Below are positions 41,484-63,094 of a stretch of DNA of 64,000 nt, piece by piece. The stretch is from Minisyncoccota bacterium (GTDB lineage: Bacteria; Patescibacteriota; Minisyncoccia; Phycocordibacterales; UBA9973): positions 76,249 through 140,248 of the forward strand of contig JAGOUX010000001.1 of the NCBI GenBank assembly GCA_018061035.1. The letters are read 5' to 3'. The notes beneath the pieces were generated by a model, which had not been told where the DNA came from, made no database searches, and was given only the letters and a program-made list of their open reading frames with translations. A program made the position numbers and the translations under genes. Each line of letters opens with the position of its first letter. The stretch's first letter is position 1.

Positions 41484-42383
41484 TTAAGCACTCCAAATAG
41501 CAGTATTCGCGAGTGGAATGGTTCTTTTATTGGATGTCTCGAGCACGCACATTTCTCCTGCTTGTACTTCCCCCTTTTTATCCTTCATTGTTTCAGAAAG
41601 AGCATAGCCTAGAGACAGCGACGAAGACTCTATTGCGTATGAAGTAAGGATGACGAAAAGTGGTTTATTGCTGAGTACTCTCTTTACAGCTGTTAGAAGT
41701 TTCGGTAGACTCTCTTCTATTTTCCATACCTCGCCTTTTGGTCCGCGTCCAAATTTTGGCGGATCCATAATAACAGCATCGTATGTATTCCCACGCTTGG
41801 CTTCCCGCTCTAGGAATTTCAAAACATCGTCTTCGATGATGCGCATTGGTGATTCTACTAGACCAGTATTTAAATTTTGATTTTCTTTAGCAAGCTTGAG
41901 CGACTGCGATGATGCATCAAGATGAGTGACATCTGCTCCTGCACGAAGCGCAAAAAGACTCGCGACACCGGTATATCCGAACAAGTTCAAGAACTTAGGT
42001 TTTTGTAAAGGACTGTCCTTTACAAAACTACCTATTTTTTGTTCGATAAAATCCCAATGAGTGGCTTGCTCAGGGAAAAAGCTCAAGTGGCGAAATGGTG
42101 TTGGTGATGCATGGAATTTAATACCTTTGTATTCCATTTCCCAACGTTCTGCAAATTTACGCTCCATCTTCCACCCTGGCTTTGCACCAGTCTTCGCAGA
42201 CCAGAATTTACCATCTATATCTGTCCATTCTTTTTTGCTTAATGTCTTGGGCCAGACTGCATCCTCATATGGACGCACAAAGTTATGCCGTCCGAAACGC
42301 TCAAGCTTCTCGCCTTCTCCTGTATCTAGGAGCTCGTAATCAGTCCAGTCTTCGGTATAAAAAATTTTAATTTTGTGGTCCAT
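41484..42383 (-). CDS. class I SAM-dependent rRNA methyltransferase (RlmI/RlmK-like)
   Basis: FLNLFGYTGVASLFAL (motif I), the DPPKFGRG motif, and an N-terminal EEHD-like domain. Confidence 0.65.
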   Translation of the reverse strand: MDHKIKIFYTEDWTDYELLDTGEGEKLERFGRHNFVRPYEDAVWPKTLSKKEWTDIDGKFWSAKTGAKPGWKMERKFAERWEMEYKGIKFHASPTPFRHLSFFPEQATHWDFIEQKIGSFVKDSPLQKPKFLNLFGYTGVASLFALRAGADVTHLDASSQSLKLAKENQNLNTGLVESPMRIIEDDVLKFLEREAKRGNTYDAVIMDPPKFGRGPKGEVWKIEESLPKLLTAVKRVLSNKPLFVILTSYAIESSSLSLGYALSETMKDKKGEVQAGEMCVLETSNKRTIPLANTAIWSA

Positions 42384-43375
42384 TATATCTTAAACTCTAT
42401 CACATCCCCATCTTTTACAATATATTCCTTGCCTTCAGTGCGGACCAACCCCTTAGACCGTGCGGCAGCATATGAACCTGAATCAAGAAGATCTTTCCAG
42501 AAGACTACTTCCGCACGGATAAACTTATCTTTAAAGTCTGTATGAATTGCAGTTCCAGCTATCGGCGCAGTGGAACCTACCTTTATAGTCCAAGCACGAG
42601 TCTCGTCTTCACCAGTAGTGAGGAATGTTTCCAGCCCGAGAAGTTTGTAACTGCCAGTGATCAGGTCATCAAAACCTTTTTCAAAAACTGAATCAATATG
42701 AACAAATGGTCCAGGTACGGCAAACTCCACATTCTGGTTTGCTTCAGAAGTATTGAGCACATAGAGCATTGGCTTGAGGGTTAGGAGGTTGAGGGACTTG
42801 ATTCTAAACTTTTCATCATCATTAAGCTCCACATCTGTAGCCATTCTGCCTTCTTCGAGAACTTTTTCAATTTTCTTTAAAATAGCTTCTTCCGCTATTG
42901 CATCCTTGCTTCCCTTTTTCAAATCACCAGCCAAAGTTTTAATTCTTTTTGAAACTATTTCCATATCAGAGAGTACAAGCTCGAGGTTGATCACACCAAT
43001 ATCAGAAAGCGGGTCAATCTTGTTCGCAACGTGAATCACTGATGGATCTTCAAACACTCTCACCACATGAGCGATAGCATCAACCTCTCGAATATTTGAG
43101 AGAAATTTATTTCCAAGTCCTTCACCCTTAGAAGCACCAGCCACAAGACCCGCAATGTCTACGAATTCAATGACAGCTGGAATTGTCTTAGCAGATTTAG
43201 AAAATCCTGAGAGCTTCTGCACTCGCTCATCCGGCACTGGCACAATGCCTACTGATGGATCAATGGTGCAGAATGGATAGTTTTCTGCCGGAACGCTTTT
43301 CTTTGTAAGCGCGTTAAAAAGCGTGGACTTCCCCACATTCGGCAATCCGACAATACCGATAGCTAGTGCAGACAT
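42383..43375 (-). CDS. ychF: ribosome-binding ATPase YchF (Obg-family GTPase)
   Basis: G1 GIVGLPNVGKSTLFNALT and a C-terminal TGS domain. 330 aa. Confidence 0.85.
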   Translation of the reverse strand: MSALAIGIVGLPNVGKSTLFNALTKKSVPAENYPFCTIDPSVGIVPVPDERVQKLSGFSKSAKTIPAVIEFVDIAGLVAGASKGEGLGNKFLSNIREVDAIAHVVRVFEDPSVIHVANKIDPLSDIGVINLELVLSDMEIVSKRIKTLAGDLKKGSKDAIAEEAILKKIEKVLEEGRMATDVELNDDEKFRIKSLNLLTLKPMLYVLNTSEANQNVEFAVPGPFVHIDSVFEKGFDDLITGSYKLLGLETFLTTGEDETRAWTIKVGSTAPIAGTAIHTDFKDKFIRAEVVFWKDLLDSGSYAAARSKGLVRTEGKEYIVKDGDVIEFKI

Positions 43376-44969
43376 TGATATTTGATATTATTGGAACGAA
43401 TCCATAAACTTGTAATTTCTCTCTGGTACCGACCGCTTTATCTATAATACCTCTTACTATCTCCTTTTTTTCATCAAAACTCAAGTTTTTGAGTTCTTCT
43501 GGTGCATTTTGAGCAAAAGCTTCTATGTCACCCAACTTGGGAACCACACCCCCTTCTTTTTTACGATCCTCCGTTATTTCACTTATTTGGACATTAAGAA
43601 AAGAAATCTTGTCTCTAATTGGTATTGTATATTCTTTAAACTGATCTAAAGTAATAGCCCCAGCGCCATAAGCTTTAGCGTATCGATCTTCCTGGTTTTT
43701 TAATTTGGAGATCTCTCTTTCTGTTTCTTGGATGTTTATTGTCGGCCCTAGAATTGTCTGATTCTTAAGGTTGAGCCACACTTCAGCTTGTTCCAATAGT
43801 CGTTCCGGTGAACTTATAAGCTGAATTATCTCCTGCCAAACCATTTTATCAACTATACGTGCATTCAAACCTTTTTCATTACAAAGAGAAGGTAAAGGAA
43901 ATGAATTAACTCTACCAGAACAACGATAATATAAATGCTTACCTTTTTGAGGACCTTCCCCAGCTCGTCTTTGCCCGCAAACACACCATATCTGACCAGC
44001 TAGCAGATACTCGTTTTTGGTGTTTCTTCTTGAAAGAATGAAGCTTGATTTCAACTTCTGCCCAACTCTATTAAATACATCCTCGTCAATAATTTTTGGT
44101 ACAGGAATCTTTATCCATTCGCTTTCAGGTTTCATTTTTCTACTCGTTTTCTTGATCTTTTTGTAAGTCTCTTGCTTTAGTGGTTTTTGTGGTACCACAG
44201 CATACGAAGCTCCATAATGAGCTTCACCGATATAAGTTCTATTTCGCAAGAGAGTGCTCAATGTGCTCGTACTCCAAACACCTCGTTCGCTTTTTCGTGG
44301 TTTTATTTCTAATTCTTGAAGTTTTCGTACTAGTGCTCTTAAGGTCAAACCCTCATCATCTACCCATGAAAAAAGCTTCTTAACGGTCTCTGCTTCCTCT
44401 TCATTGACTTCGTAGTGACCTTGAGCAAAATCCGAATCTCCTCTTTTACCCTTTTTGATTAGAAGCGTATAACCATAAGGGGCTTGGCTACTGACTACAT
44501 GTCCTTCCTTAGCTTTCCGTACTTTACCCAATCTAAATCTCTCTTTGATTTTCATTCTTTCATACTCAGTAAAAACTCCTCTCATTTTATACATGATGAT
44601 ATCTTCGTCAGTTTTTGCTTGAGGGATTGTCACAAAGAGGACATCTATTTCTAACTCTTTGAGTTCTTCCATCACCACCTCTTGCCACGAACCACGCCTG
44701 GCAAGCCTATCTGGATCATACATTAAAACAGCTTCCCAGCTTTTTTTCTTCGCGTCCATACGAAGCTGATCAAGACCTGGCCTCGCTAGACTGTCACCAC
44801 TCCATCCATTATCTTCATATTCTTGCACAATAGTATAACCATTTTTTTGGGCAAATTCTTTGATAGCTAAGTTTTGAGTTTCAATAGTTCCCTCGTTTTC
44901 TTGATTCGAAGTAGACACCCGCTTATATGTAGCAACTAGCTTATTTACTTTTTTTATTTCTTCAATCAT
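43314..44969 (-). CDS. large serine recombinase (integrase)
   Basis: N-terminal resolvase catalytic domain (YKRVSTSNQ...), recombinase domain, zinc-ribbon Cys cluster (CVCGQ...YYRCSGR) and coiled coil. The final 20 codons read into the ychF start region. Confidence 0.85.
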   Translation of the reverse strand: MIEEIKKVNKLVATYKRVSTSNQENEGTIETQNLAIKEFAQKNGYTIVQEYEDNGWSGDSLARPGLDQLRMDAKKKSWEAVLMYDPDRLARRGSWQEVVMEELKELEIDVLFVTIPQAKTDEDIIMYKMRGVFTEYERMKIKERFRLGKVRKAKEGHVVSSQAPYGYTLLIKKGKRGDSDFAQGHYEVNEEEAETVKKLFSWVDDEGLTLRALVRKLQELEIKPRKSERGVWSTSTLSTLLRNRTYIGEAHYGASYAVVPQKPLKQETYKKIKKTSRKMKPESEWIKIPVPKIIDEDVFNRVGQKLKSSFILSRRNTKNEYLLAGQIWCVCGQRRAGEGPQKGKHLYYRCSGRVNSFPLPSLCNEKGLNARIVDKMVWQEIIQLISSPERLLEQAEVWLNLKNQTILGPTINIQETEREISKLKNQEDRYAKAYGAGAITLDQFKEYTIPIRDKISFLNVQISEITEDRKKEGGVVPKLGDIEAFAQNAPEELKNLSFDEKKEIVRGIIDKAVGTREKLQVYGFVPIISNINVCTSYRYCRIAECGEVHAF

Positions 44970-45184
44970 TTTTTGTTTTTACTTCTTTCCAAAAACTTTT
45001 TAATTTCAGATTTTGGTATCCGCAAAAGAGACGTCTTGCCTTCACCTAGCTTGTAACTTTTTAAAATACCGCTCTCAATCCAGCGATCAACCGTTCTTTC
45101 GTGAACCCTAAAGTATTTTGCTACTTCATTCCTTGTGAGAAATTCCATAAATATATTATGCTCAAAATTGTCTATTATTGTCAA
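44966..45184 (-). CDS. excisionase-family HTH DNA-binding protein
   Basis: LTRNEVAKYFRVHERTVDRWIESG is a MerR/excisionase-type HTH. It overlaps the recombinase start by 4 nt. Confidence 0.65.
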   Translation of the reverse strand: MTIIDNFEHNIFMEFLTRNEVAKYFRVHERTVDRWIESGILKSYKLGEGKTSLLRIPKSEIKKFLERSKNKK

Positions 45185-45399
45185 TTCAACTTATCCACAC
45201 TGTACATCTTTTTATATACCTTACTAAAGATAATATCGTAAACTTTGGCCAATCTTCTTTGTGTATCTTCCTCTGAAGCAGACTCAGAAACAAAATACGA
45301 AATCTTGGGGATTAAAACCTTTTTGGGCTTCCGTTTTCGTACCTCTTCCTTTGTTTCGACTTCAAATGACATATAAATTTTACTTTTTTGATAGCCCAA
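45181..45399 (-). CDS. hypothetical small protein
   Basis: 72-aa ORF whose stop overlaps the next gene's start. Confidence 0.3.
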   Translation of the reverse strand: MGYQKSKIYMSFEVETKEEVRKRKPKKVLIPKISYFVSESASEEDTQRRLAKVYDIIFSKVYKKMYSVDKLN

Positions 45400-45874
45400 A
45401 ATCCTGCTCTTCTCTCAACTGTTTTAGAGCCTTAATCATTTCTTTTTTGAGTTTTTCTTGAGTGAGATTATTTTCTCTGATTTCATCAGTGATTTTAACC
45501 TTGGAGAGATTTCTTATTCTTCTTCTAGATTCAGGGCCCCACGAATCATTAAAGGATTCTATCTCATCCCATTCTTGAAATTTTTGTTGACTGTTAAAAA
45601 TATTCCTCTCAATTTCACGGAATCTTCTCAATTTCCATCCCGAAAAAATATATGTTTTTAAAAATTCTTCTTCGATTTTCGATTGAGCACCCATCTTTTC
45701 ACGTATTTTAAGGACATAATCAGTAAAAATCCTCTTATTCTCCCCTTTTATGAGTACCTGTCGGCCCAAAACAACAGGATCTAACCCGTCTTCTAGTTCC
45801 TTAATTATTCTTTGTACTTTCTTAAAAGAGTTTATTCGCTGCTTATTCAATTTTATTTCTTTAATATTTTTCAT
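45380..45874 (-). CDS. hypothetical protein
   Basis: 164 aa, basic, with no motif. Confidence 0.35.
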   Translation of the reverse strand: MKNIKEIKLNKQRINSFKKVQRIIKELEDGLDPVVLGRQVLIKGENKRIFTDYVLKIREKMGAQSKIEEEFLKTYIFSGWKLRRFREIERNIFNSQQKFQEWDEIESFNDSWGPESRRRIRNLSKVKITDEIRENNLTQEKLKKEMIKALKQLREEQDFGLSKK

Positions 45875-45885
45875 ATTTTAAAACC

Positions 45886-48228
45886 CTAAAAAGGTATATC
45901 TTCCACATTAAGAAAAGACTTTTTTGGTAACTCCGGAGGCAGTTCATCAATTCCGTCTTGATCTTTTTCTACTACCGAACTTAAACCATGAAAAAGGTCA
46001 ACATCTTGCAGCGATGAAGCGATGGGAGCGATGTTTTCCTTAATCTTACGGATGGTTATCTTCCTATGTTGTCCACCTTCTCTTTCAACATAAATTCCTA
46101 CTTCTTCTAAGGTAGTTTTTAATGCCATGATATTACGACTAAAAACTTGAGGTGTATCTGGTATTTTTGTACGCCAGTCATCAATATATTTTAAACGTAA
46201 AATGGCAAGAAGTTCGGTAGCACTACCACTCCACTCTTCTTTATCAGCCATAAATTCCACAATGAAGGATGCTTCAAGGTTGTCATTAATAACTTCATCA
46301 CTCTGAAGATTTATATTCTGTGTATATGCACGCAAAAACTCTGCTCTGCTGTGACCCAATGCTTCAGCAATAGCACAACCCCATAATGTAAAATCAGCCA
46401 TGCGTGGAAGATTAGTCTCTTTTACTGTAGGGCGTATTTCCATAGCTTTAGATAACACAGTGAAGATAGAACCAAGCAATGACGGCAATTCAGCAGTGAA
46501 GTTATCTAGCATATCCTTCTCTTCCTTGCGCTTACCCTTTGGAATTCTCGCAAGGTCCACCAGGACACTACGCTCTAGTAGGTCTGGCTTGAGTGAAGGT
46601 AGATTAATGCCATTAAGTGATATACACCTCTTAAAGTTGTAGATAATATCGCTATCATCGCTGTATAGCTCCCGTTTAGAAAAGCCACTGCCTGTAACGG
46701 CTCTACACAATATGTCAGATAGTTCAGACGGTATTATGGTGATATTGTCGAAAACTAAAAACCAGTGGTGTGCTAATTGCTGTATCAATTCTTTCTGATC
46801 CTTCGGAAAATCACTACCATCAATCTTTGAGGGGTCAATTATCTTTTTGAGTATTTTAGATACAGTTGATTTTGCCGAACCTTGGGGACCATGAAAATAT
46901 ATCATTGGGTGTGGAAATCCAGGGATGAAACAACAAATTAACCATACTGCGAGCAATAATTTGTGGTCCTCGCGCTCAATGTTTATATAACTAAATAGAT
47001 TAAAAATATCACCACCTAACACAGGAGTCACTTGAGGTTGCTGATGGTTATACGTTCGAAAAAGAATAGGTGGATTCTTTTCTATGGTCCACCCAGTAGC
47101 AGATATTTTTACGCTTTGCCATTCACTATCGCTTAAAAAATAAAATATAGAATCACCTTTCTGGTTCACCCTATTTTCTAGTTCATATTGATTTCCTTCA
47201 TATGCCGCATGACCCTCAACTGTGTTTAGAGCAGTACTAATAGCATCATTGTTTGGCGTTTTAGAATACTTTTTCCAGTATTCTCTTCCAAGCCACATTT
47301 TTGTTTTCTTACTTCTGCACACATAGTATTCTTTATGATTATCAACAGGAAATTGTATGTATGGTTCATCTAGTTCACTACAAAAAAGTAGTATATCAGG
47401 GGATTCTAAAACTAGACTTACAATTTTATCGGCCTGACTTGTTGCTTTTTCCTTTCTCTCTTCTTCTTTATTTATATGATATTTTTTTATACTTTCCCAA
47501 ACCCCTCTTAATTCCTTTTCTGACATAGGCGGAATATTTTCACTATTCCAAACTTTAAAGTTTTTCCAGCCTACGCTTTCCCATAATTCCACAGGAGCAG
47601 AAAACAGCAACCTTCCTGCCATAGAAGCGGCAGTGTCATTTCTTAAGCCTTTGGGAGCGCCGTCTTTGAATGACAACCATTTTTTGTCGTTATTGCCTTG
47701 AGTCCTAATTTGAACAACCCATTCTGGCAGTTCAGAAAAATCAGAATCATCTGGCGAGATGAGCCACTCATACTCCCCTTTAGTACTTACGGACGGTGGT
47801 GCTACTACATAACCCCCATCCCCTCTTATATCTGTTAATTCTCGAACCCTTGTCCCATTTGAGACCTTCTCACTTGGGTGTTTGTAATAAAAATGCATAC
47901 CTCCCCCTCCAGTTTTAGCCGCCACTGTTGGCAGATACCCAGAACTATTGCCGTCTTTTTCAACATCTACAACAACGACCCCTGAAATCTTTCCAGTTAC
48001 GATAGCGATGCCTGCGTTTGGCCATACCGTCCACCAATTATTTATTTCTTCTTGTGTAGGAAATCTACTTTGAAATTCTGCCCAACTTATAAATGGTTTT
48101 TTATCAGCTTGAACAGGTATTATACTGAAACCTTTTCTAAGATAATGTAATGCCCAATCTAGATTTGTTTTTTTATTCTCTGGTGACATAAATATACAAA
48201 GCCGATGACATGTAACGCCTAGTAACAC
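45886..48228 (-). CDS. replicase: bifunctional DNA primase/polymerase (Prim-Pol) N-terminal domain fused to a P-loop SF3-like helicase/primase C-terminal domain
   Basis: Prim-Pol motifs VVVVDVEKDG and GGGMHFYYKH, then Walker A GPQGSAKST and Walker B LVFDNI. The listed start is GTG; an in-frame ATG lies 13 codons downstream (MSPENKK). Confidence 0.8.
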   Translation of the reverse strand: MLLGVTCHRLCIFMSPENKKTNLDWALHYLRKGFSIIPVQADKKPFISWAEFQSRFPTQEEINNWWTVWPNAGIAIVTGKISGVVVVDVEKDGNSSGYLPTVAAKTGGGGMHFYYKHPSEKVSNGTRVRELTDIRGDGGYVVAPPSVSTKGEYEWLISPDDSDFSELPEWVVQIRTQGNNDKKWLSFKDGAPKGLRNDTAASMAGRLLFSAPVELWESVGWKNFKVWNSENIPPMSEKELRGVWESIKKYHINKEEERKEKATSQADKIVSLVLESPDILLFCSELDEPYIQFPVDNHKEYYVCRSKKTKMWLGREYWKKYSKTPNNDAISTALNTVEGHAAYEGNQYELENRVNQKGDSIFYFLSDSEWQSVKISATGWTIEKNPPILFRTYNHQQPQVTPVLGGDIFNLFSYINIEREDHKLLLAVWLICCFIPGFPHPMIYFHGPQGSAKSTVSKILKKIIDPSKIDGSDFPKDQKELIQQLAHHWFLVFDNITIIPSELSDILCRAVTGSGFSKRELYSDDSDIIYNFKRCISLNGINLPSLKPDLLERSVLVDLARIPKGKRKEEKDMLDNFTAELPSLLGSIFTVLSKAMEIRPTVKETNLPRMADFTLWGCAIAEALGHSRAEFLRAYTQNINLQSDEVINDNLEASFIVEFMADKEEWSGSATELLAILRLKYIDDWRTKIPDTPQVFSRNIMALKTTLEEVGIYVEREGGQHRKITIRKIKENIAPIASSLQDVDLFHGLSSVVEKDQDGIDELPPELPKKSFLNVEDIPF

Positions 48229-48256
48229 ATCATCGGCTTTGTATACTAGGCGTTAC
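48196..48256. promoter_or_regulatory. two interleaved perfect 13-bp inverted repeats (A-B-A'-B') at the replicase 5' end
   Basis: A is acaaagccgatga (48196-48208), B is gtaacgcctagta (48212-48224), A' is tcatcggctttgt (48230-42) and B' is tactaggcgttac (48244-56). Confidence 0.4.
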
Positions 48257-48326
48257 CATATTAAAAACACCGAACTTATATATTCAGTGTAGTCATTTGA
48301 ATTATTATGTATAAAGTATTAAGGAG

Positions 48327-48971
48327 TTACTTATCCCTGATTTTTTTACCGAAGACTTTAGGTCGTTCTTTCTTTGGAATACCTAGCATATTGCATACAT
48401 CCGTCACAATGGTTCTCACGTTGGTTTCATCAATTTTTTGTTTGAAAGTTTTAAAAATATTATCTTGGATATTTTGCAAAGTGGAGCCACTTTTCGCCAT
48501 TTTAAAAATTGACAGATCTCTTTCCGAGTACAACTTCTTTCTATTCCTTTTGATTATTTGAGGCTTGAAATACTCTCCCATCAACTTAAATGCCAACTCA
48601 AAATCTTGGAGTCGCGTATTAGGTCCCACTTTTAAAAAATAATAATCAATAGTCTTTTTCTTTTCAGGAATTTGTATTACTAAACCATCTTTATCAAAAC
48701 AATGGTTTACATTTCTCAGCCCTTTATTTTGAATGAAATCAATCACTTCTTCTTGGTAACTTTTTTCTACATGTAGCCTTTTAAACAACTTTGTTATTTC
48801 AAGCTGTTTTTTCTTAGGAGAGGTTATTTTCATTATCTCCTCCGCTTCAGATAAAAATGATTCGTCATCAAAAATAGACTTGGATTTTAAATCGTAGGAC
48901 TTCTTAGGGGTTACATATTCTAGGCGCATACATTGAAAATGATACATTTTTTTGTCATAATAACAATACAA
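48327..48971 (-). CDS. hypothetical protein (element-encoded)
   Basis: 214 aa, basic. Confidence 0.4.
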   Translation of the reverse strand: MYCYYDKKMYHFQCMRLEYVTPKKSYDLKSKSIFDDESFLSEAEEIMKITSPKKKQLEITKLFKRLHVEKSYQEEVIDFIQNKGLRNVNHCFDKDGLVIQIPEKKKTIDYYFLKVGPNTRLQDFELAFKLMGEYFKPQIIKRNRKKLYSERDLSIFKMAKSGSTLQNIQDNIFKTFKQKIDETNVRTIVTDVCNMLGIPKKERPKVFGKKIRDK

Positions 48972-48989
48972 CTAAATAAATGACCTAAC

Positions 48990-49160
48990 CCTTAGGTATC
49001 CCTTAAGGTATGGCCGCAAGACCCATGGAAAGTACTGAACCCTACGTTCAGCGCTCTTCCATGGGCCGTATCTGGAAACGGATACGGGGTCGCAAGACCC
49101 AGCTGGCGTGGGGTTCTGTGCGTTCTCACGCTAGCTATTATTAGCTAGCTTTTATTTTTT
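48990..49160 (+). ncRNA. candidate structured RNA (GC-rich, multi-hairpin) ending in a strong intrinsic terminator
   Basis: Hairpins include CCCATGGAA...TTCCATGGG, CTGAAC/GTTCAG, GTATC/GATAC and GGGTC-GCAA-GACCC (GNRA loop). The terminator is GCTAGCT-attatt-AGCTAGC followed by TTTTATTTTTT. GC content is far above background. Confidence 0.3.
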
Positions 49161-49331
49161 ATGGTAACACTTTATTTGTGGGAAAAAGTAGTTTTAGGAG
49201 TAGTAGCTCTAGTATCGTTTGTTGCCGGAGTACAAACAGGTGGAATTATTGACGGTGTAATGGCGATGGCTATTAATACTCTTATTGCCTTTGTTCTATT
49301 TAAGGTTGGCAATAGAACTTTTAGGAGAAAA
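49161..49331 (+). CDS. small hydrophobic peptide (56 aa, 2 TM)
   Basis: ATG immediately after the terminator T-run. Sequence MVTLYLWEKVVLGVVALVSFVAG... Confidence 0.3.
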
Positions 49332-49338
49332 AAGTAAC

Positions 49339-49518
49339 ATGGAAGAAGATAATTGGAAACACACTCTGATTGGGTTGTTCATATTTATTGCAATCTGTCT
49401 TTTGGCTGGTTGGCTAAGTGAAAGGTTCCATGAACCTAAAGATTTGTGGGAATGTAATGGTGCTAATTCTCATCTTGATGACAACTTGCCGAAGTGTCCA
49501 TCTTGGATGTTTAAATAG
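49339..49518 (+). CDS. small hydrophobic peptide (59 aa, 1 TM)
   Basis: AGGAG RBS. Sequence MEEDNWKHTLIGLFIFIAICLLAGWL... The listed ORF has an in-frame upstream extension from 49285. Confidence 0.35.
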   Translation: MEEDNWKHTLIGLFIFIAICLLAGWLSERFHEPKDLWECNGANSHLDDNLPKCPSWMFK

Positions 49519-52500
49519 TTACAGCTCCCAATATTTACTTGGATTCCTCTCCCGTAATATATTTATTATCTTTTTAGCATCTTTGTTGGTTTTTGATAGT
49601 TCTTTAATAGTAGATACTAAATGGTCCGACTCATGAAGTTCTATTCCTTTAGGAAAGGAGAAGAATATTTTTGCAGCCTGCATGAAGTTATCTTTGCCTA
49701 CTTTTTCGTACAATAATTCCATAATATTGGTATGATACAGAGAAGGATACCAATAAACTTCTGATCTATTCCCTTTTTTTAGTTCTTTTTCGTAAAATTT
49801 CTTTTCAATCTTTAAACATTTAACTAACAAGTTAAACCATTTACTACTATGCTTATCTACACTCCTGAATTTATGCTCAATAGTCTGGTAAATCAAATTG
49901 AAAATGTTATGTGCATAAACGTCTGAAAGTAAGTCAAAGTATTCAATCGTCAAATTAATACATTTATCTATGTTATCTTCAGGTGAAACTTCACGCATCG
50001 TGTGTTCAGCCATTGAAGCAAATCGAAAACAACTATCCGGATTTTCTTTTTGTAATTTTTTTATAGTTTTAATTAAAATCGCCTTGAATTTTCTTTGATC
50101 GTATTTTTCTGGGCCTAAATCGTCATACAACCCTGGGGCACTAAATCTCCATTTTTTATATGTATTTTTCCTAAACTCAGCATAATATAAGAACAAGGCC
50201 GCAGACTCTTCCGTAACGTCTATTGGTAATTTAGTGAGAGCATTAACTAATCGAAGGGCTTCTGTCTCATTAAGCGAGCGTATACGATCAAAAACATGCA
50301 ATACACTCTTTGTCATAGCTTTTTGGACATTTAAGGGCCACAGAATCAACCTATCTAATAAATCGAATGCTATGTTTTCAATATCTTTTGATATTTGTAG
50401 AGCTTTCTTTTTATCGTTATTAAGAAATAAGGTATCACGATCACTCGGTAAAACTGTTAGGCGCACAGAGGCAAGCTGAGCAAGAGCATAGGATCCCATA
50501 TGTATTGCATAATAGTTTTTATCTTGCACTAATCTTTCGGTCAGATTAATTATCTTTCCTAAAAATTCTCTCCCTTCTAGCACAGAGCAGTTCATTAAAA
50601 CCCATCCACACCAACCCCTGACAGATGTAATACTGTGAGGTTCTTTTCCTCCCTCTATTCTCTTATGTTCATTATGTTCGTTATTTTTTTCTTGAGGATC
50701 TTGGCCAGGCATGTATGGATCAGGATCTTCCATAAAAATTTCAACAACTCTTAATGCCTCTTTTATTTTTTTATATTTAGCTAGCCTGTCAGCAAATTGT
50801 AAAATCGCAGACCTATGGCCTCCGATAGGAAATCTAATATATATTTTCTCTATATTGTTATCTAACTCGTTCAAAGCAGGATTTACAATATTCTCATATA
50901 TTTGCATAGTTGTTTCTTCACTATCTTTTGTGTTTTCATTTATATTGAGAAGACCATGAGTGTAGATAGCTTGTTGGTCTGGGCTAAGTACTTTTTTGCT
51001 TTCAAGTAGTCTAAAAATATCCAAACCCTGTGAGAAATCTTTCAATAAAATGTCATGCAAAAGACGAGCAAGTTCAAAAGCACTAAAGTGATCGCTCTTT
51101 TCTGACTCTCGATATTCACTTGTTATAACTAACTTGAATAAATAGATAGCAAAATCAATATCATTTTCTAGGAAGTTTCTAATTGTCGAAGTAGTATCCA
51201 TATCTGACATGAAACGATTATAATACTTAGGATTTTTGAACCATTTTTTTAATTCTTCGCGAGCTTTCTCATGACCTTTTTTTGCTAACTCACTTACAAC
51301 TTTTTCTACAAATGGATTAACTGGCACATTATATTTTTCCGTAGTTAATCTGATTAAATTCCACTTCTTAGAATCTGAAATGGTCGAACCCATTGTTGCC
51401 TGATAAATTAAATCGGATTTATGAGGAATACCTTTTCTCGACATAACAAACTCCCTCAGTATCTTAAATGCTTCTCCTGATATTTTTAGGTCTTCACTAG
51501 AATAACGCTGAAAAACAATTTCATATACAGATCTATTTAAGAAATCTGGTCTGTTTTTTGAAACTTTACTGGTTTGGTTAATGCAATAACTTTTAATAAA
51601 CTTCCAGCCCTTAGTTTTATCTTTATTGTAATATTGTAAAATACATGGAGCGAGAATAAATCCAATAAAATGCCTGTCTTCGATGTGATAATTACTTCCC
51701 CAGAAAGCTGTACCCCCACCCATGTGCTCCCAACCCTTAAATTCAAGCTTCTTACCAATCTTTTTGTAGTAGCGATCAAACTGACCAATAATTACTTTCA
51801 ACAAAACAGGAAATCTATGAGGAAAATCTTCATTTAGCCATTCTTTTAGAATATCGTAGACTTCTTTTGGGGCGTAATGATTAAACTGGCCATCGTCACG
51901 TGTGATGTTGAAAGAAGAAGTAAGTAACTTAAATATTTTCTGTTTTAATTCAAAATCTCCTTGTTTAAATATTTGGCCAATAAGCTTACAAACTTCTGCC
52001 TTCTCCCATTCCAAGTGGCTGTCATTATTACTCTTTAAGTAGAAAAATTCATCTTTATTGTAGCTAATAAGATCTTGTGTGATATTAAAAGCAATATTTA
52101 AATAATTTTCCCCATCTTTATTTTCGATAATTTTCTTCAAAATTTTAATAACTGACGTACTAAAGAAATCTGAAGAACTATAATACCCCCTAATAGTTCT
52201 AGAATGACTTTTAATATAGCTAAGTGCGTATTCTTTATTTTTTATCGTTGTTAAATTATTTTCAAAAACATTAAAAATACCAAAGGAAAATGGGTGCACC
52301 TTGTTTAACTTCCACAAACTACTCCATTTCCTCAAATCTAAGTCCTGACGATTCTTTAGACGGTCCATAGCAAATGACATAAGATCCCATCTGGCCGAAA
52401 AGGCAGACAGAGAACCAGTACCCCATTTAATACCCTTATGTCCATTTATATTTTTTTCTAAAAGAAAAAATTGTTTCTTCTTTTTATTTTGATTATTGAA

Positions 52501-53127
52501 ATAATCGCTTCTTTCCTCAACTCTAGTCCTTAAAGCAATTACATCTTGATTAAAATCAACACGAGAGTAAGTGGAGCCTGTAGTTGATTTTTTGAAAATG
52601 TTATTTTTAAAAATACTGTCAGTAAATTCCTTTACATCTTCTTCAGGAAGCCAAAATTTAATAGCATCAGCAACTAAAGAATAATTTAATTCCTCGTCAA
52701 TTTTTTCTGATAGTTTCCAAAATTTAACTTTAGATAAAAGTTCAATACATTCATCACTATAACCTTTTCTCTTAAAAAAACTTTTAATATCTTCAAAATA
52801 TTTAATATTTTTAACTTTAGATTCTAAATCAGTACTAAGCTTTTTGCAAACTATCAAGATTTCATCCTGAACTCCAATTGATTTTTTCTTTTCTATGTTC
52901 TCTAAAATTTCTTTAAGTTGAGCATAGTCTAAATTAACTCCTTTATATTTTGATTCACAGACTATTTTTTTATCTTCTGCAAAAACAAGATCGAAATCCT
53001 CAGATTTACTTGATTCTAAATGAATATATGAAAATCTATGATCACGCAAAAACTGCAAGAATAAAGACATAGCTGCCCAATTCTGTACGTATATTCCTAT
53101 TTGTGTATTTTGTCCGGCTTTAGTCAT
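49519..53127 (-). CDS. 1202-aa protein: N-terminal PD-(D/E)xK-like nuclease domain plus a long alpha-helical repeat region, no NTPase motifs
   Basis: The N-terminus has a G-I-Y-V-Q...EDFDLVF...CESK signature that aligns with the N-terminus of the upstream 268-aa protein. I found no Walker A. It is translationally coupled, lying 4 nt after the upstream gene. Confidence 0.75.
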   Translation of the reverse strand: MTKAGQNTQIGIYVQNWAAMSLFLQFLRDHRFSYIHLESSKSEDFDLVFAEDKKIVCESKYKGVNLDYAQLKEILENIEKKKSIGVQDEILIVCKKLSTDLESKVKNIKYFEDIKSFFKRKGYSDECIELLSKVKFWKLSEKIDEELNYSLVADAIKFWLPEEDVKEFTDSIFKNNIFKKSTTGSTYSRVDFNQDVIALRTRVEERSDYFNNQNKKKKQFFLLEKNINGHKGIKWGTGSLSAFSARWDLMSFAMDRLKNRQDLDLRKWSSLWKLNKVHPFSFGIFNVFENNLTTIKNKEYALSYIKSHSRTIRGYYSSSDFFSTSVIKILKKIIENKDGENYLNIAFNITQDLISYNKDEFFYLKSNNDSHLEWEKAEVCKLIGQIFKQGDFELKQKIFKLLTSSFNITRDDGQFNHYAPKEVYDILKEWLNEDFPHRFPVLLKVIIGQFDRYYKKIGKKLEFKGWEHMGGGTAFWGSNYHIEDRHFIGFILAPCILQYYNKDKTKGWKFIKSYCINQTSKVSKNRPDFLNRSVYEIVFQRYSSEDLKISGEAFKILREFVMSRKGIPHKSDLIYQATMGSTISDSKKWNLIRLTTEKYNVPVNPFVEKVVSELAKKGHEKAREELKKWFKNPKYYNRFMSDMDTTSTIRNFLENDIDFAIYLFKLVITSEYRESEKSDHFSAFELARLLHDILLKDFSQGLDIFRLLESKKVLSPDQQAIYTHGLLNINENTKDSEETTMQIYENIVNPALNELDNNIEKIYIRFPIGGHRSAILQFADRLAKYKKIKEALRVVEIFMEDPDPYMPGQDPQEKNNEHNEHKRIEGGKEPHSITSVRGWCGWVLMNCSVLEGREFLGKIINLTERLVQDKNYYAIHMGSYALAQLASVRLTVLPSDRDTLFLNNDKKKALQISKDIENIAFDLLDRLILWPLNVQKAMTKSVLHVFDRIRSLNETEALRLVNALTKLPIDVTEESAALFLYYAEFRKNTYKKWRFSAPGLYDDLGPEKYDQRKFKAILIKTIKKLQKENPDSCFRFASMAEHTMREVSPEDNIDKCINLTIEYFDLLSDVYAHNIFNLIYQTIEHKFRSVDKHSSKWFNLLVKCLKIEKKFYEKELKKGNRSEVYWYPSLYHTNIMELLYEKVGKDNFMQAAKIFFSFPKGIELHESDHLVSTIKELSKTNKDAKKIINILRERNPSKYWEL

Positions 53128-53131
53128 ATAT

Positions 53132-53938
53132 TTATGATTTTATGGCTTCTCCTTCTTTATTCTTATCTTTTTTAATCTTAATTGGATTCGCCCTCATTCT
53201 ATCATCAATAATTTTATTGATAACATCCAAAGGTAACCTTACCTCAGTTGAGTGAAGACCTTCTTTAAGTAAATTTGATCCACGAAAACTTACAAGAAAA
53301 TCATTTATGAGATCTTTAATATTCCCCACAGAATAGATTCTTTCCAAGGAGTTCCCTTTACAGGAAATTTTATCTATCTCATCCCTGAGTCTGGCTATAA
53401 AACTTCTTACCGCCTCAGTATGTATGTCAGAACCTGGCCCTAGTGCCTTTTTAAGTATCTCAGTCGCCGCCAAAAGAACTAGTCCGTCAATTTGTCTGTG
53501 GTCATAAGCTAAATAATCAATTTCAATCCGATTTTTATCTATTCCTTTTAATGATGCTTCTATAAATCTTTTAGTTGCAGTGCTATATTTAATACCCCTA
53601 TCGTCTCCTCTAATATTTAAAAATAAATAGGCAAGAGATTTTGAAGGGTTTTTTGTAAAGATAAATTTAAAAGAGCTGTCCTTTTTGCTTGATTGTGTCG
53701 CCTTGCTAAAATAATACAATAGAATATTATTAGTTTCCTTGGCAGTTAAGCCCACTAAGCTTGATTTAACTTGATACCCAGCAAAGCTCGACTTACTCCA
53801 AATTTCAAAGTCCATTTTATCCTGCTCACAAAATACTTGTTCAAATTCTGCGTTATTACCTAAATTTTCTAAGGCAAAATAAACAGAACATAAATCTTGA
53901 TACCTGAAACCAGTTTTTGCTGATGGTCCTCCGCTCAT
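53132..53938 (-). CDS. 268-aa protein with an N-terminal PD-(D/E)xK-like (DUF4297/Cap4-nuclease-like) domain
   Basis: GFRYQDLCSVYFAL ... MDFEIW ... YQVK, i.e. D...(Q/E)xK spacing. It is paralogous to the N-terminus of the 1202-aa protein. Confidence 0.7.
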   Translation of the reverse strand: MSGGPSAKTGFRYQDLCSVYFALENLGNNAEFEQVFCEQDKMDFEIWSKSSFAGYQVKSSLVGLTAKETNNILLYYFSKATQSSKKDSSFKFIFTKNPSKSLAYLFLNIRGDDRGIKYSTATKRFIEASLKGIDKNRIEIDYLAYDHRQIDGLVLLAATEILKKALGPGSDIHTEAVRSFIARLRDEIDKISCKGNSLERIYSVGNIKDLINDFLVSFRGSNLLKEGLHSTEVRLPLDVINKIIDDRMRANPIKIKKDKNKEGEAIKS

Positions 53939-53959
53939 AATAATTAATACATTCTAGCA

Positions 53960-53999
53960 TTTAAATTAAAAATTGCTTGCTTTTAGGTGAGGTAAGCAA
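53960..53999 (-). terminator. terminator-like hairpin separating the upstream operon from the nuclease-pair operon
   Basis: On the minus strand, TTGCTTAC-N12-GCAAGCAA is followed by TTTTTAATTT. Confidence 0.45.
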
Positions 54000-54063
54000 T
54001 GGATATCCGCTCCATGCACATGACAGGTACTTTTCTGGTTTATAGTACGTGTAGGATCAGATC

Positions 54064-54462
54064 TTAGTGATAATTTATATATTGACCATACAGAGAATCC
54101 GCAATCATTTCCTTTAAAGTATCGAATTTCCGCACCCCTTCCTCTAAACTCTTAATCTTTTGCCAAACCTCATTCTCTGCCCCAACATTTATATCTAACT
54201 TATTTATATCATCCTCAAAAACAACATAAATCGTATAAGCATTTACTGCATCGTGCCAAGCATTACCTTTCACACTCGTCCGCAAAATGTCTACGAAAGG
54301 AAGTATCTCTGCTTCTGGCACAACAACCAAAAACTTATCCTTCTCATCTACCTCAAACGCTATGCCTTTTATCTTTGAAACTTCAGCTTTAAGTGAATCA
54401 AAGTCCTTAGACCAGACTCGTTTAATGTAACATACGAAAGAGTTATTGATTATATTTTCCAT
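54064..54462 (-). CDS. hypothetical protein
   Basis: 132 aa. It is the last gene of the ABC-F operon, 13 nt after the DUF1905 gene. Confidence 0.45.
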   Translation of the reverse strand: MENIINNSFVCYIKRVWSKDFDSLKAEVSKIKGIAFEVDEKDKFLVVVPEAEILPFVDILRTSVKGNAWHDAVNAYTIYVVFEDDINKLDINVGAENEVWQKIKSLEEGVRKFDTLKEMIADSLYGQYINYH

Positions 54463-54475
54463 ATATTCCAGTATA

Positions 54476-54790
54476 CTAAACTAAGATCTTTATACTAAAC
54501 TTAATTAAATCACCTTTATAAACACCTTCCTTTTTGCGAATAGTAGCTTTAAGCGGAACAAGATAACTGTCCGTTCGAGAATCAAGGAATATTGAAGTTT
54601 GCCAGATGCTTTTACCAATAGTCACTGACACAGGCAGCGAACGCCAGCCGCGAGACAGTGCACCGAAGTCTTTTTTAATCTGGGTAGTTTCTTTTTGTGG
54701 AATACTTACGAAATGCCAAGGAGCATTAGTGTCATAACCCCAAAGCCAGACTTCACCATTTAATTTTAAGTTATTGTTCTTCTTTGGCAT
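54476..54790 (-). CDS. DUF1905 domain protein
   Basis: W.WGYD...WHFVSIP.E.T..IKK......GWRSLPVSVTIGKSIWQTSIF......YLVPLKATIRKKEGVYKGD matches the DUF1905 consensus as I recall it. Confidence 0.6.
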   Translation of the reverse strand: MPKKNNNLKLNGEVWLWGYDTNAPWHFVSIPQKETTQIKKDFGALSRGWRSLPVSVTIGKSIWQTSIFLDSRTDSYLVPLKATIRKKEGVYKGDLIKFSIKILV

Positions 54791-54794
54791 AACT

Positions 54795-55202
54795 CTATTT
54801 ATTTCTTAAATATTCTTCTATTAAAACAACATCTTGTGCAGTTTTTGGTTTTTTGTCTCCTTCTTTAAGCCATTGTTTTTTAACGATAAGTAGAAACTCA
54901 AGTGAGTTATATCGTACCCCGTCTATAACAGTAGTCTTATCAAGTACTTGTTCAAGATTGAAAGATTCGCCGAGTGGTTTCCAGTTTGGACCTATTTCAA
55001 AAACTCCGTCAGTAAGCACGTCTTCTTTTTCGCCTCTTTTAAAGCGAAGATTTTTAGACAATTCTGTAAACTTTTTTTCCGTAACAACAACGTCAATATC
55101 AGCACTTTTACGAATGCCTAGGACTTCTAAAATACCCGAACCAATGACGATAGAATTATCGGTATCAAGTCCAATTTCTTTTAATTTATCTTTAAGATTC
55201 AT
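54795..55202 (-). CDS. minimal nucleotidyltransferase (Lnu/LinA-like or MNT-like fold)
   Basis: IVIGSGILEVLGIRKSADIDVVV matches the hG[GS]-x9-DhD NTase motif. It resembles the LnuA segment WLDGGWGVDVLTGKQQREHRDIDID. Confidence 0.5.
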   Translation of the reverse strand: MNLKDKLKEIGLDTDNSIVIGSGILEVLGIRKSADIDVVVTEKKFTELSKNLRFKRGEKEDVLTDGVFEIGPNWKPLGESFNLEQVLDKTTVIDGVRYNSLEFLLIVKKQWLKEGDKKPKTAQDVVLIEEYLRNK

Positions 55203-55266
55203 GTTTTGTAGTATACCAGCTTATAATACTTTTTTCCTAGATAGCACTTGAAATACTTTGGGCTTT

Positions 55267-56628
55267 TTAAAAGTCATTAAGACGTTCTTTTAGCCAGCCA
55301 TTTTCAGGGTAAATAAATTTATCTACCTCAATTTTACTAGTAAAGTATCTATCGTGCGAGACTACAAGAATCGCACCTTGGTATTCCATAAGTGCGTTTT
55401 CAATTACCTCCCTCGACTGTATATCTAAGTGATTTGTCGGTTCATCCAAAACCAATAGCTCGTGCTTCTGATTTGTCAGTTTTGCAAATATAAGACGAAC
55501 TCGTTCACCATGACTAAGTGATGATACTTTTTTAAACACAGCTTGATCCGAAAAAAGAAAAGCTCCGAGAACTTGTCGTGGATCTTTTGAAGTTATTAAA
55601 CTAGAAGTACTCAAGAATTCTTCCAGTACGGTCTTGTTAACATCGAGCTGTTCGTGCTCTTGTGCAAAATATCCAATAGACACATTAGTCCCGATTTTTA
55701 TTTCACCGCTATCTGGTTTTAAATCACCTGTGATTATTTTAAGTAATGTAGTTTTACCTGAACCATTATTTCCCGACAACAGTATTTTCTCTTTTCCTCT
55801 AATCTCAAAAGAAACATTCTTAAGTACAGGTTTTTGGTTAAAACTTTTTACAAGGTTATCACATCGCAAAACAAGTTTTGTATTTGCTACTTCGCCAAGA
55901 ATATTCACTCCTTTGATTTTCTTAAAGCTTTCTGGTTTTTTAATCTCCTTGTTGTGAATTTCTCTTTCTAGATATTTTTCTTTGGCACGAATCATCTTTC
56001 CCTTGCTAGCACTAGAGTAAATTGAGGCTTCCTGTTTTTTGAGAACTAGCCAATTTTCGAGTCGTTTCTTTTCTCTCTGTTGTAATCTATATGAGTTTTC
56101 TTGTCTTTCAGTACTTCTCTTTTTCTCAGTTATGTAATTGGTATATCCACCCAGATATTCATTAAAAGAATTGTTGACGGGATCAATTTCCAATATTTTG
56201 TTTACAGTATTATCAAGCAACCGCCTGTCATGGGAAATGACCAGCACACAGCCCCTAAAGTTCTTTATGACGTCCTCAAGCCACAGAATTGCGTCTAGAT
56301 CCAAGTGATTGGTCGGCTCATCTAAAAGAAGCACTGTTGGTTTTTCTTTCAAGATGGTTTCTAAAGCTAGACGAGTTTTCTGCCCACCACTTAACTTTGA
56401 GTCATTAAATACTATTTGCTGAGGAAGATAACCTATGCGTTCATTCTCTATTTTGATTAAGCCATTATCGATTTCGACTTCACCGACGATTGCTTTAAGT
56501 AAAGTAGATTTACCTGCACCATTTGGTCCTACTAGCCCGATACGATCACCTCTATGCAACACAAAAGAAACCTTTTCAAAAAGATTCTCACCTGCAATAC
56601 TTACGCTTACGTTTTTTATGATTATCAT
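55267..56628 (-). CDS. ABC-F family ATPase (two tandem NBDs, no TMD), compact at 453 aa
   Basis: NBD1 has GPNGAGKST, LSGGQK, LLLDEPTNHLD and SHDR. An inter-domain linker of about 75 aa follows. NBD2 has GNNGSGKTT, LSHGER, LVLDEPTNHLD and SHDR. Confidence 0.8.
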   Translation of the reverse strand: MIIIKNVSVSIAGENLFEKVSFVLHRGDRIGLVGPNGAGKSTLLKAIVGEVEIDNGLIKIENERIGYLPQQIVFNDSKLSGGQKTRLALETILKEKPTVLLLDEPTNHLDLDAILWLEDVIKNFRGCVLVISHDRRLLDNTVNKILEIDPVNNSFNEYLGGYTNYITEKKRSTERQENSYRLQQREKKRLENWLVLKKQEASIYSSASKGKMIRAKEKYLEREIHNKEIKKPESFKKIKGVNILGEVANTKLVLRCDNLVKSFNQKPVLKNVSFEIRGKEKILLSGNNGSGKTTLLKIITGDLKPDSGEIKIGTNVSIGYFAQEHEQLDVNKTVLEEFLSTSSLITSKDPRQVLGAFLFSDQAVFKKVSSLSHGERVRLIFAKLTNQKHELLVLDEPTNHLDIQSREVIENALMEYQGAILVVSHDRYFTSKIEVDKFIYPENGWLKERLNDF

Positions 56629-56629
56629 G

Positions 56630-56690
56630 TTTAGTAGAAAAAAGACCCAATAGAAATTCTGTTGGGTCTTTTTTCTTTATATATTTAGTA
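56630..56690. terminator. bidirectional terminator hairpin (AGACCCAA-N12-TTGGGTCT flanked by A/T runs)
   Basis: Read directly from the sequence. It lies between the HIT operon end and the ABC-F start. Confidence 0.5.
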
Positions 56691-56844
56691 ATTAATTAGT
56701 GTTTAAAAAGAAAAGTTCCCGCGTCGAAAAAGCCCACGGATGTGAAGCCCTCAAAGTTTTTGAACAAGAATAATTCTTTTCGTTTCATGTGTTGTAATAA
56801 TAACATATCAGAAAACATATACAACTTCAACTTTCCAAACAATT

Positions 56845-57204
56845 CTATAAACCCTGCTTAATCCACATATCTAAACCATCATTTGGAAAACGAGGCACAA
56901 CATGAAAATGTAAGTGATTTACAGATTGTTGAGCGTCTTTGCCAGAAGCATTAAGTATGTTTACACCAGTTGCTCCGGTTTCATTAAGTAAGTGGCAACT
57001 TAATTCTTTAGTCACAGAAATAACCTCTCTTAAAACTGAATCATCCACATCAAAAATGTTTTCAAAGTGATTCCTTGGTATTACGAGAGTATGGCCTTTT
57101 GATACTTGATCGAGAGGAAGGATTGCTAAAACTAAGTCATTTTCAAATGTAATTTGAGCTGGAGCTTCTTTTTTTATTATGTTACAAAAAATACAATTGC
57201 TCAT
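56845..57204 (-). CDS. HIT (histidine triad) family protein
   Basis: HLHFHVVPR histidine-triad motif. 119 aa. Confidence 0.8.
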   Translation of the reverse strand: MSNCIFCNIIKKEAPAQITFENDLVLAILPLDQVSKGHTLVIPRNHFENIFDVDDSVLREVISVTKELSCHLLNETGATGVNILNASGKDAQQSVNHLHFHVVPRFPNDGLDMWIKQGL

Positions 57205-57208
57205 GGAT

Positions 57209-58108: not shown

Positions 58109-58141
58109 AATAGTTATTGTTTAAGCTTAAATACATAAAAA

Positions 58142-58768: not shown

Positions 58769-58772
58769 AAAT

Positions 58773-59318: not shown

Positions 59319-59322
59319 AGAG

Positions 59323-59901: not shown

Positions 59902-59903
59902 AA

Positions 59904-60805: not shown

Positions 60806-60809
60806 GATT

Positions 60810-63087: not shown

Positions 63088-63094
63088 ATATTAA

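Follow-up and report, generated by a model that had tools for sequence, protein, structure and literature searches.

What lies upstream of ychF, and how far does it extend? This question is raised by a 64,000-nt stretch of a metagenome-assembled genome of a Minisyncoccota bacterium (Patescibacteria, "Candidatus Pacebacteria"; contig JAGOUX010000001.1, positions 76,249 to 140,248; hereafter the window), in which the gene of a large serine recombinase (LSR) runs into the 5' end of ychF, a GTPase gene of the essential type. An original prediction, made from the sequence alone, had proposed a 13.4-kb serine-recombinase integrative element with its own replication module, inserted at the 5' end of ychF. 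We consider it highly probable that the locus is an integrated copy, approximately 22,056 bp long, of a plasmid-like integrative element from a Patescibacteria family whose target is the initial codons of ychF. The length is counted from the attR core at 43353-43354 to an attL core at the equivalent coordinate 65409-65410, ~1.4 kb beyond the window end, and positions 43355-64000 of the window are entirely inside the element. The predicted kind of element was borne out by empty sites in relatives, variable cargo, and a free circular relative; its far boundary was not.

The junction with the host was placed by comparison of attL and attR sequences. Codons 1-7 of ychF (43355-43375) are element-derived, and host sequence begins at 43352 and continues downward. 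Eight attL/attR pairs (L085, L113, L119, L120, L121, L126, L025, and L174; L numbers denote the contigs compared) place the crossover at a 2-bp AT at 43353-43354, in codon 8 and 22 nt inside the gene, where AT makes up positions 1 and 2 of the second Ile codon of MSLSIG-I-VG. This dinucleotide was the sole identity common to attL and attR in each pair, the preceding wobble position and the following base being different, in agreement with the predicted short att sites without long direct repeats. A 2-bp crossover without long repeats is the behavior expected of a serine integrase. The junction had been predicted at 43376-43400; the positions from 43355 to ~43400 are instead the P arm of the element, which comprises ATGTC (43375-43371), N16, and AT, preceded by a TGATAT repeat. 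The tandem repeat noted in the prediction is present (TGATAT-T-TGATAT at 43376-43394, reading atatcaaatatca on the minus strand), but it belongs to the P arm and not to the junction. In sequence, the P arm imitates the ychF 5' end and carries its own ATG within ATGTC, a motif mirrored by GACAT in the P' arm; in the attP contigs, the two motifs form the dyad ATGTC-N16-AT-N16-GACAT, so that the new ychF start codon lies within the outer motif. For the window element, attP was reconstructed as …ATGTCTGCACTAGCTATCGGTAT joined to AGATTGTGTAGGCCGCGACTT…, and attB as ATGTCATTATCTATAGGAAT joined to TGTCGGATTGCCGAATGTGG. The ychF gene stays intact because the element supplies its own ATG and the first seven codons, and the ychF promoter of the host and its first seven codons are stranded ~22 kb away at attL. 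Since a strong promoter-like site precedes the gene pair formed by an HTH_17 gene and LSR, and no terminator lies between LSR and ychF, ychF is probably transcribed from the element by read-through, from the promoter at 45184-45155 and/or an AATAAT box at 43392-43387. As a separate observation on ychF expression, a -10-like box (TATATT, TAATAT) stands 6-12 nt before the ychF ATG in empty sites and at attL (L004, L007, L012, L014, and L085:361-390), a spacing that suggests that the ychF mRNA of these bacteria has no leader or a very short one.

The arrangement recurs in many related loci. More than 1000 LSR homologues were detected at E ≤ 1e-20, mostly in sequences annotated as Patescibacteria, and the closest were 55-73% identical. 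Three homologues on long contigs lie directly upstream of ychF, with a reading frame that enters the gene; in two of them it ends 62 nt beyond the ATG, and in L084, which lacks the conserved stop, it extends ~170 nt. An HTH_17 gene precedes each of these three LSRs; the replicases vary (AAA_25, or D5_N/DUF5906), as does the cargo (Fic, SLFN/AlbA_2, HEPN-AbiU2). A metagenome scan with an LSR alignment yielded 80 more loci. LSR reads into ychF in 61 of the 85 independent loci including the window, has another continuation (the attP form) in 20, and is cut by contig ends in four. The predicted run of the LSR frame into ychF is therefore a recurrent feature; in the window, the last 62 nt of LSR (20 codons and the stop) overlap the ychF start (ATG at 43375) in another frame. 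The empty site that had been anticipated in related genomes was also found: the closest species by ychF (78-67% amino acid identity; L002-L005, L007, and others) lack an LSR ahead of ychF, and their gene begins MSLSIG… or MLSIG… a few bases past a -10-like box. The order ychF, methyltransferase gene, 178-aa ORF (open reading frame), leuS is kept downstream in the relatives, and synteny with the window ends exactly at the ychF start. A literature search retrieved no description of ychF-targeting serine-recombinase elements in the candidate phyla radiation (CPR).

Both ends and a free form were recognized in this family. An attL composed of the host promoter, ychF codons 1-7, AT, and the P' arm was identified in L085, L113, L119, L120, L121, and L126 and, in decayed form, in L025, and the elements with both ends visible measured 8-11.5 kb. 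In L085, for example, attL joins ttgctaatatcctaagtATGTCATTAAGTATCGGAAT to GGAGTGAACACACCACGACAT, and attR joins tatcaATGTCTTCTCTTTCAATCGGAAT to TGTGGGGTTGCC. In the 20 loci of the free form, P-AT-P' replaces ychF after LSR, and these contigs reach 15-64 kb. One of them, L091 (15,290 nt), is circular, as its 127-nt terminal direct repeat indicates; its LSR is 66% identical to that of the window, and its gene content comprises an RHS toxin, an AAA_25 replicase, LSR, and a KAP NTPase, with virion genes absent. Decayed remnants were found in L006 and L025.

Several of the loci have peculiarities of their own. L025 (1241-1320, 2918-2965) holds a 1.67-kb recombinase-free remnant that keeps attL and the tail ORF described below and lies between the copies of a 43-nt direct repeat including the ychF promoter. 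In L013 (9877-9918, 9998-10040), the first 42 nt of ychF occur a second time, 120 nt ahead of the gene, with synonymous differences and without a recombinase in the vicinity; this copy may be a scar left by a different element whose crossover was deeper in the P-loop codons. In L148, two P' sites stand ~1.1 kb apart (1569 and 2664), the second preceded by a C-terminal fragment of a recombinase (tandem copies or a remnant), and in L113 (222-365) two tRNA genes lie just inside attL.

The position of attP bears directly on the recombinase itself. LSR in the window ends …YGFVPIISNINVCTSYRYCRIAECGEVHAF before the stop; the protein is native to approximately Y531, and the final 19 codons (CRIAECGEVHAF and the stop) are ychF read out of frame. 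Across the loci, the integrated LSR ends in 12-20 out-of-frame ychF codons, and residues Y15, R17, V18, and S19 are invariant in a 42-sequence alignment. By comparison with the free-form contigs, attP lies within the 3' end of the LSR gene: the ORF runs across attP in 12 of the 12 attP contigs translated and continues for 35-60 codons beyond it. The tail so encoded is conserved at the protein level, with the consensus …R-H-x(4-12)-(I/L/V/M)PFxFx(I/V)K(L/I)P(P/A)P…, after which LxxGxDYGF often follows, and it persists in integrated elements as an orphan ORF right after attL. A profile hidden Markov model (HMM) built from 13 tails matched every attP and attL checked (E 1e-5 to 1e-21). Of the 120 closest proteins in the database, the free-form tail is present in 17 (565-625 aa), and the remaining 103 terminate in the peptide read from ychF out of frame (…NRNCRxAKCGEVHAF). 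Since attP lies inside the LSR ORF and the tail is orphaned at attL, integration splits the integrase gene and exchanges its C-terminus; and since attP lies within the integrase gene family-wide, the LSR/ychF overlap is not incidental. In an AlphaFold2 model of a free-form member, IPFxFTIKL forms a β-strand (residues 547-555, predicted local distance difference test score ~80) that follows a disordered linker and is located after a C-terminal β-hairpin. The exchange of tails may make the stability or the direction of the recombinase depend on the integration state. A literature search found no description of a serine integrase gene spanning attP, and the combination seen here, an integrase gene with its own attP inside and a conserved tail that is lost upon integration, is not known to us from any other serine integrase. 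Some free-form tails end in -AA (…RKAA, …KMAA, …KRAA, …KEAA, and …KKAA; P0044, P0050, P0054, P0074, P0093, L095, and L129), a resemblance to ssrA-like degradation tags, as in Int and Rep of mycobacteriophage BPs, that is no more than suggestive.

The far end of the window element was found on contig L174, which comes from the same sample as the window (SRR11088468) and was located through the NUDIX protein encoded at 63095-63625. Positions 1427-2632 of L174 correspond to window positions 64000-62795 with 100% identity over 1206 nt, and the contig reaches 1426 nt past the window end. It opens with (AT)GTCATTATCTATAGGAAT followed by AGATTGTGTAGGCCGCGACTT…, and the LSR frame continues as the tail RLCRPRLLTNGESVKLLPFSFVIKLPPPRYERVIVSRDEQGRIIRSTPPSIKN, which contains …LLPFSFVIKLPPP…, ends at a stop, and matches the tail HMM (E = 2.4e-10). 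The native LSR tail of the window element, 53 aa long, thus sits at attL beyond the window. We read the L174 junction as attL, not attP, because its left arm is the host-type MSLSIGI start and not the MSALAIGI of the element. Joining the B arm of L174 to the B' arm of the window rebuilds MSLSIGIVGLPNVGKS, which is identical to the empty sites of L004 and L007.

No such end was present nearer to ychF. A position weight matrix (PWM) built from 16 P' arms reached a maximum of 5.3 bits in 43376-64000, compared with 17-34 bits for true sites, and a Hamming search for the P' arm there was also negative. Within the same interval, the tail HMM detected no orphan integrase tail in six-frame translation, and degenerate patterns detected no second copy of the ychF 5' end. 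A search for long direct or inverted repeats between the ychF junction and 48-64 kb gave nothing meaningful. The minus strand holds every long ORF from 38 to 64 kb, and all element genes are co-directional with ychF, except for a small-RNA unit of the LOOT family. The GC content at third codon positions (GC3) is 0.22-0.35 in every gene from 43.4 to 64 kb, compared with 0.37 ± 0.06 in the long genes of 1-43 kb. Composition was dropped as a boundary marker, GC3 being uniformly lower across 43-64 kb with no sharp edge.

Several points weigh against a single 22-kb mobile element. Its attL is known from a second assembly of the same sample and not from the window, and L174 starts within the B arm, so that the host flank beyond is unseen. 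No circular or attP form of the window element itself was observed, and a search of IMG/VR viral contigs with LSR and Prim-Pol returned no relatives. The AT core is palindromic; in characterized serine integrases, a non-palindromic core sets the orientation. The distribution of the ABC-F ATPase gene, which belongs to the cargo (Table 1), is broad and vertical-looking in Patescibacteria. Because of this distribution, and because the distal 9-11 kb encode ordinary-looking small enzymes, some room is left for an older composite or nested origin of part of the 22 kb.

The strongest alternative is a composite island, in which the mobile unit would be the proximal ~10-11 kb, from LSR to a Cap4-like operon, with its end near 54.0 kb, and 54-65 kb would be an older element remnant or captured host DNA that retains an old attL. 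Such a size would fit the 8-11.5 kb of the elements with both ends seen, and the GC minimum (0.28-0.33) falls at 49.5-54 kb, in the Cap4-like cargo operon. A weak attL-like string, ATGTGCAT and GGAGCGGA at 54008-54021 (125-nt gap), had been raised as an attL candidate by a Logan contig ending there and was rejected, as other assemblies run through. The string has no outer GACAT half and no support from the PWM or the tail HMM, and the motif GVATGGMGYG occurs twice in the window compared with 0.65 times expected, which is not significant. Moreover, 17 of the 22 integrated loci with a full 10-kb flank had no attL within 10 kb, which indicates that large elements are common; free-form contigs reach well beyond this length, and the window element has a single LSR and a single attL/attR pair. 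We therefore regard a composite island as improbable and prefer one 22-kb element.

That this 22-kb element is a temperate prophage or a phage satellite, and not plasmid-like, is decidedly unlikely. PHROG matches for an integrase, an excisionase, and a primase, the defense- or anti-defense-like cargo, and small, weakly holin-like ORFs would suit a phage. However, searches of Pfam and PHROGs gave no convincing capsid, portal, terminase, or tail family for any element ORF; two weak partial portal-family matches (5e-07 and 6.3e-06) fell in NUDIX proteins, beneath stronger NUDIX matches. The lack of IMG/VR relatives and the virion-gene-free circle L091 argue in the same direction. Family searches of the ORFs of the window element detected no relaxase, coupling protein, or type IV secretion genes either, a TrwB-like protein occurring only in the distant relative L155, and a plasmid-like integrative element is the best description.

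The 13.4-kb version of the element, which would end at the terminator near 56650-56690 and leave the HIT gene, the kinase gene, and the later genes to the host chromosome, is hardly credible. The strong bidirectional terminator noted in the original prediction does exist and is followed by genes for ordinary small enzymes, but it is internal: the proposed right-end interval, 56629-56844, contains neither att features nor a ychF remnant, the P' arm and the orphan tail are absent from 43376-64000, attL with the tail stands at the equivalent position 65409-65410, and low GC3 continues through 64 kb. The HIT and kinase genes, which had been read as the resumption of host genes, consequently lie inside the element as cargo. 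Finally, a conserved chromosomal arrangement with a housekeeping invertase or resolvase beside ychF, for which only the very widespread LSR-ychF adjacency would speak, can be dismissed in view of the empty sites in relatives, the cargo and replicases that differ between loci, the attL/attR/attP triads, circular L091, and the decayed remnants L006 and L025.

According to the sequence comparisons, LSR recombines attP of the plasmid-like element with the attB that the first ~45 bp of ychF provide, with exchange at AT. Integration rebuilds ychF with element-encoded residues 1-7, leaves the host promoter and codons at attL, and strands the conserved tail (RH…(I/L)PFxFxIKLPPP…, 53 aa here) at the same end. 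In the mechanism that we propose, the element would replicate as a circle through its Prim-Pol/P-loop replicase, the LOOT RNA may be part of the replication or control module, and the HTH_17 protein might serve as an excisionase or directionality factor. A further, joint proposal is tentative, and we think it rather less probable than its opposite: attP within the integrase gene would act as an integration-state switch, in which the free circle makes a full-length integrase whose tail governs stability, direction, or the choice of orientation at AT, and the tail-less variant of the integrated form behaves differently; at the same time, the LOOT RNA would be a replication or copy-control RNA. 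If this is true, CPR bacteria would have in this family a naturally occurring system of integrating vectors, whose attB is defined and lies in a gene conserved universally. Patescibacteria (CPR) account for a large share of bacterial diversity, and few of their mobile elements have, to our knowledge, been described. An abundant family with more than 1000 integrase homologues, defined attP and attB, and a circular member offers a starting point for CPR integrating vectors and new attP/attB pairs for serine-integrase engineering, and the loss of the tail on integration provides a direct hypothesis for the control of direction or stability.

Comparison with known systems places the element among, and apart from, the serine integrase elements (phiC31, Bxb1, A118, TP901-1, SPbeta, and SCCmec-type). 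The Resolvase/Recombinase/zinc ribbon architecture is the same, and the att sites are likewise short, with 2-bp identity, and a small HTH gene lies next to int. By contrast, attP here is inside the recombinase ORF, from which a conserved tail of 35-60 aa is removed on integration, the P arm mimics the start of the target, which is restored, the AT core is palindromic, and the hosts are Patescibacteria. A118, skin, and SPbeta disrupt their target genes, splitting comK, sigK, and spsM, respectively. The elements that target tRNA genes and the satellites of the phage-inducible chromosomal island (PICI) and P4 types likewise carry a copy of the end of the target gene, a core of int, xis-like, and primase-helicase genes, and variable defense-type cargo. 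Unlike them, the present element targets the 5' end of a protein-coding gene and uses a serine, not a tyrosine, recombinase, and no helper-phage-related genes were seen in it.

Splitting of an integrase gene has a precedent in the "suicidal" SSV-type tyrosine integrases that archaeal viruses and plasmids encode, in which the recombination site lies in the integrase ORF and the gene is split into pieces at both element ends (PMC7253208). In both cases, att is within the integrase ORF and integration splits the gene; the SSV-type enzymes, however, are archaeal tyrosine recombinases that target tRNA genes and are left as two inactive halves, whereas the serine recombinase here loses only its tail, for which it acquires a short substitute, and retains every catalytic and DNA-binding domain. 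In mycobacteriophage BPs and its relatives, attP is inside a coding gene, and integration alters the C-terminus and the behavior of the protein (PMC4557955). The cut gene of BPs encodes the repressor, and its integrase is a tyrosine recombinase, whereas the integrase gene itself is cut here; a likeness exists in those free-form tails that end in -AA, like ssrA-type tags. In a defective pneumococcal prophage (PPH005/Spn1 site), int lies immediately upstream of ychF, and the prophage is reported to control ychF expression (PMC8637289). That case concerns a phage remnant in a different phylum, with attB between a DUF951 gene and ychF, outside the ORF, and no frame fusion has been described for it.

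The features of the element are collected in Table 1. The excisionase-type HTH gene, the two small hypothetical genes, the 214-aa hypothetical gene, the two genes for small peptides, and the two cargo operons listed in the original prediction are all present where it had placed them.

Table 1. Features of the integrated element and its junction with ychF, given in window positions
Feature	Position	Strand	Description
ychF	42383-43375	-	330 aa; intact N-terminus MSALAIGIVGLPNVGKS; Pfam MMR_HSR1 and YchF-GTPase_C
attR	43330-43400	-	P arm, AT core (43353-43354), and B' arm; aligned junctions of 80+ loci
LSR, integrated form	43314-44969	-	551 aa; Pfam Resolvase (5e-29), Recombinase (1.7e-18), and Zn_ribbon_recom (2.8e-5); PHROG integrase (5.5e-88)
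HTH_17 (excisionase/AlpA-type) gene	44966-45184	-	Pfam HTH_17 (5.4e-13); PHROG excisionase
Two small ORFs, 72 aa and 164 aa	45181-45399, 45380-45874	-	ORF calls
Prim-Pol and PriCT_1 primase-polymerase with C-terminal P-loop NTPase region	45886-48228	-	780 aa; Pfam; PHROG DNA primase/polymerase
214-aa ORF, first gene of the replication operon	48327-48971	-	ORF calls
LOOT small-RNA unit	48933-49149	+	promoter-like site 48933-48961, LOOT RNA 48982-49100, intrinsic terminator 49130-49149
Two small hydrophobic/membrane-type ORFs downstream of LOOT	49161-49518	+	weak holin/transmembrane-type matches
Cargo operon: Cap4-nuclease/HamA/LmuA-like protein and orphan protein	49519-53938	-	268 aa (53132-53938) and 1202 aa (49519-53127)
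Cargo operon: ABC-F ATPase, 135-aa ORF, DUF1905, 132-aa ORFan	54064-56628	-	ABC-F ATPase at 55267-56628
Palindromic bidirectional terminator	56636-56676	.	internal to the element; no att features here
Distal cargo	56845-64000	-	HIT, APH-type kinase, S51 peptidase, DUF4202, LigT/2H, glyoxalase, NUDIX, PfkB, MBL, ComB, NUDIX, HAD (Pfam)

The HTH_17 gene adjoins LSR in most loci; its true start is likely at ~45148, behind the promoter-like site at 45184-45155 (TTGACA-18-CATAAT), and its product is a candidate excisionase or recombination directionality factor, or a regulator. Homologues of the 164-aa ORF occur in three related elements, and homologues of the Prim-Pol protein in eight. The C-terminal half of the latter contains a deviant Walker A motif (GPQGSAKST) and a Walker-B-like motif (WFLVFDN). 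A Prim-Pol fused to an SF3-like P-loop domain had been predicted: Prim-Pol/PriCT_1 and the Walker-like motifs were recovered, but no Pfam helicase family exceeded the threshold in this protein, and the SF3-like label is plausible but unproven.

The predicted structured RNA locus proved to be LOOT (RF03000), with an Rfam score of 78.4 bits against a gathering threshold of 46.4 bits; its unit is divergent from the replication operon. As far as we know, LOOT is an orphan RNA motif known only from metagenomes. Rfam also detected it in circular L091 (5394-5512), L113 (4831-4942), L119 (6798-6916), and L121 (6409-6530), and a covariance model from five copies found it in 27 loci, always inside the element. 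It was present in 17 of the 30 loci having a full 10-kb upstream flank and also in L171, an element with a different LSR. In the loci checked, LOOT lies 0.6-1.8 kb upstream of the replicase gene, mostly divergent, with Prim-Pol or AAA_25 alike. Among 28 sequences, 92.8% of the cells were paired and 30 of the 35 pairs were doubly changed in a compensatory manner, a value that none of 500 shuffles reached. The LOOT RNA, now placed next to the replication module of these elements, appears to belong to a replication or control module.

In the first cargo operon, only the N-terminal ~60 aa of the 268-aa protein match Cap4_nuclease/HamA, and a longer but weak match to LmuA was obtained (E 1e-5 to 1e-8). 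The 1202-aa protein, in the place where a Hachiman- or Lamassu-type system would have a HamB helicase or an LmuB SMC ATPase, had no Pfam, PADLOC, PHROG, or PDB match, and the operon may be an undescribed defense system. In the second operon, the 132-aa ORF (54064-54462, minus strand) had no homologue but itself among 5.8 billion clustered proteins and is an ORFan. An identical-protein look-up returned no record for ychF, ComB, or the 214-aa ORF. The ABC-F gene and those beyond it were first read as host genes, on the grounds of the broad distribution of ABC-F and an MBL neighbor shared with L170; this reading was dropped once attL had been located. Beyond the window, the distal cargo goes on with the rest of the HAD gene, NADAR, a MazG-like gene, the orphan LSR tail, and attL. 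Approximately 14 co-directional small hydrolase or kinase genes (56845-64000 and L174:299-1794) are found in this region, and several of their families include anti-defense or signal-degrading enzymes. The element also calls for caution in annotation, since in a reduced genome, mobile cargo can take the form of ~16 kb of seemingly ordinary "housekeeping" enzymes.

ABC-F, glyoxalase, and MBL genes adjoin other LSRs in L170-L173. In L171 (3480-4808) and L170 (12787-14172), a different, shorter serine recombinase (442-461 aa) stands beside homologues of these three. The recombinase of L171 is accompanied by a reverse transcriptase, an SNase, and another LOOT RNA (7636-7748), and this type looks like a second LOOT-bearing element family.

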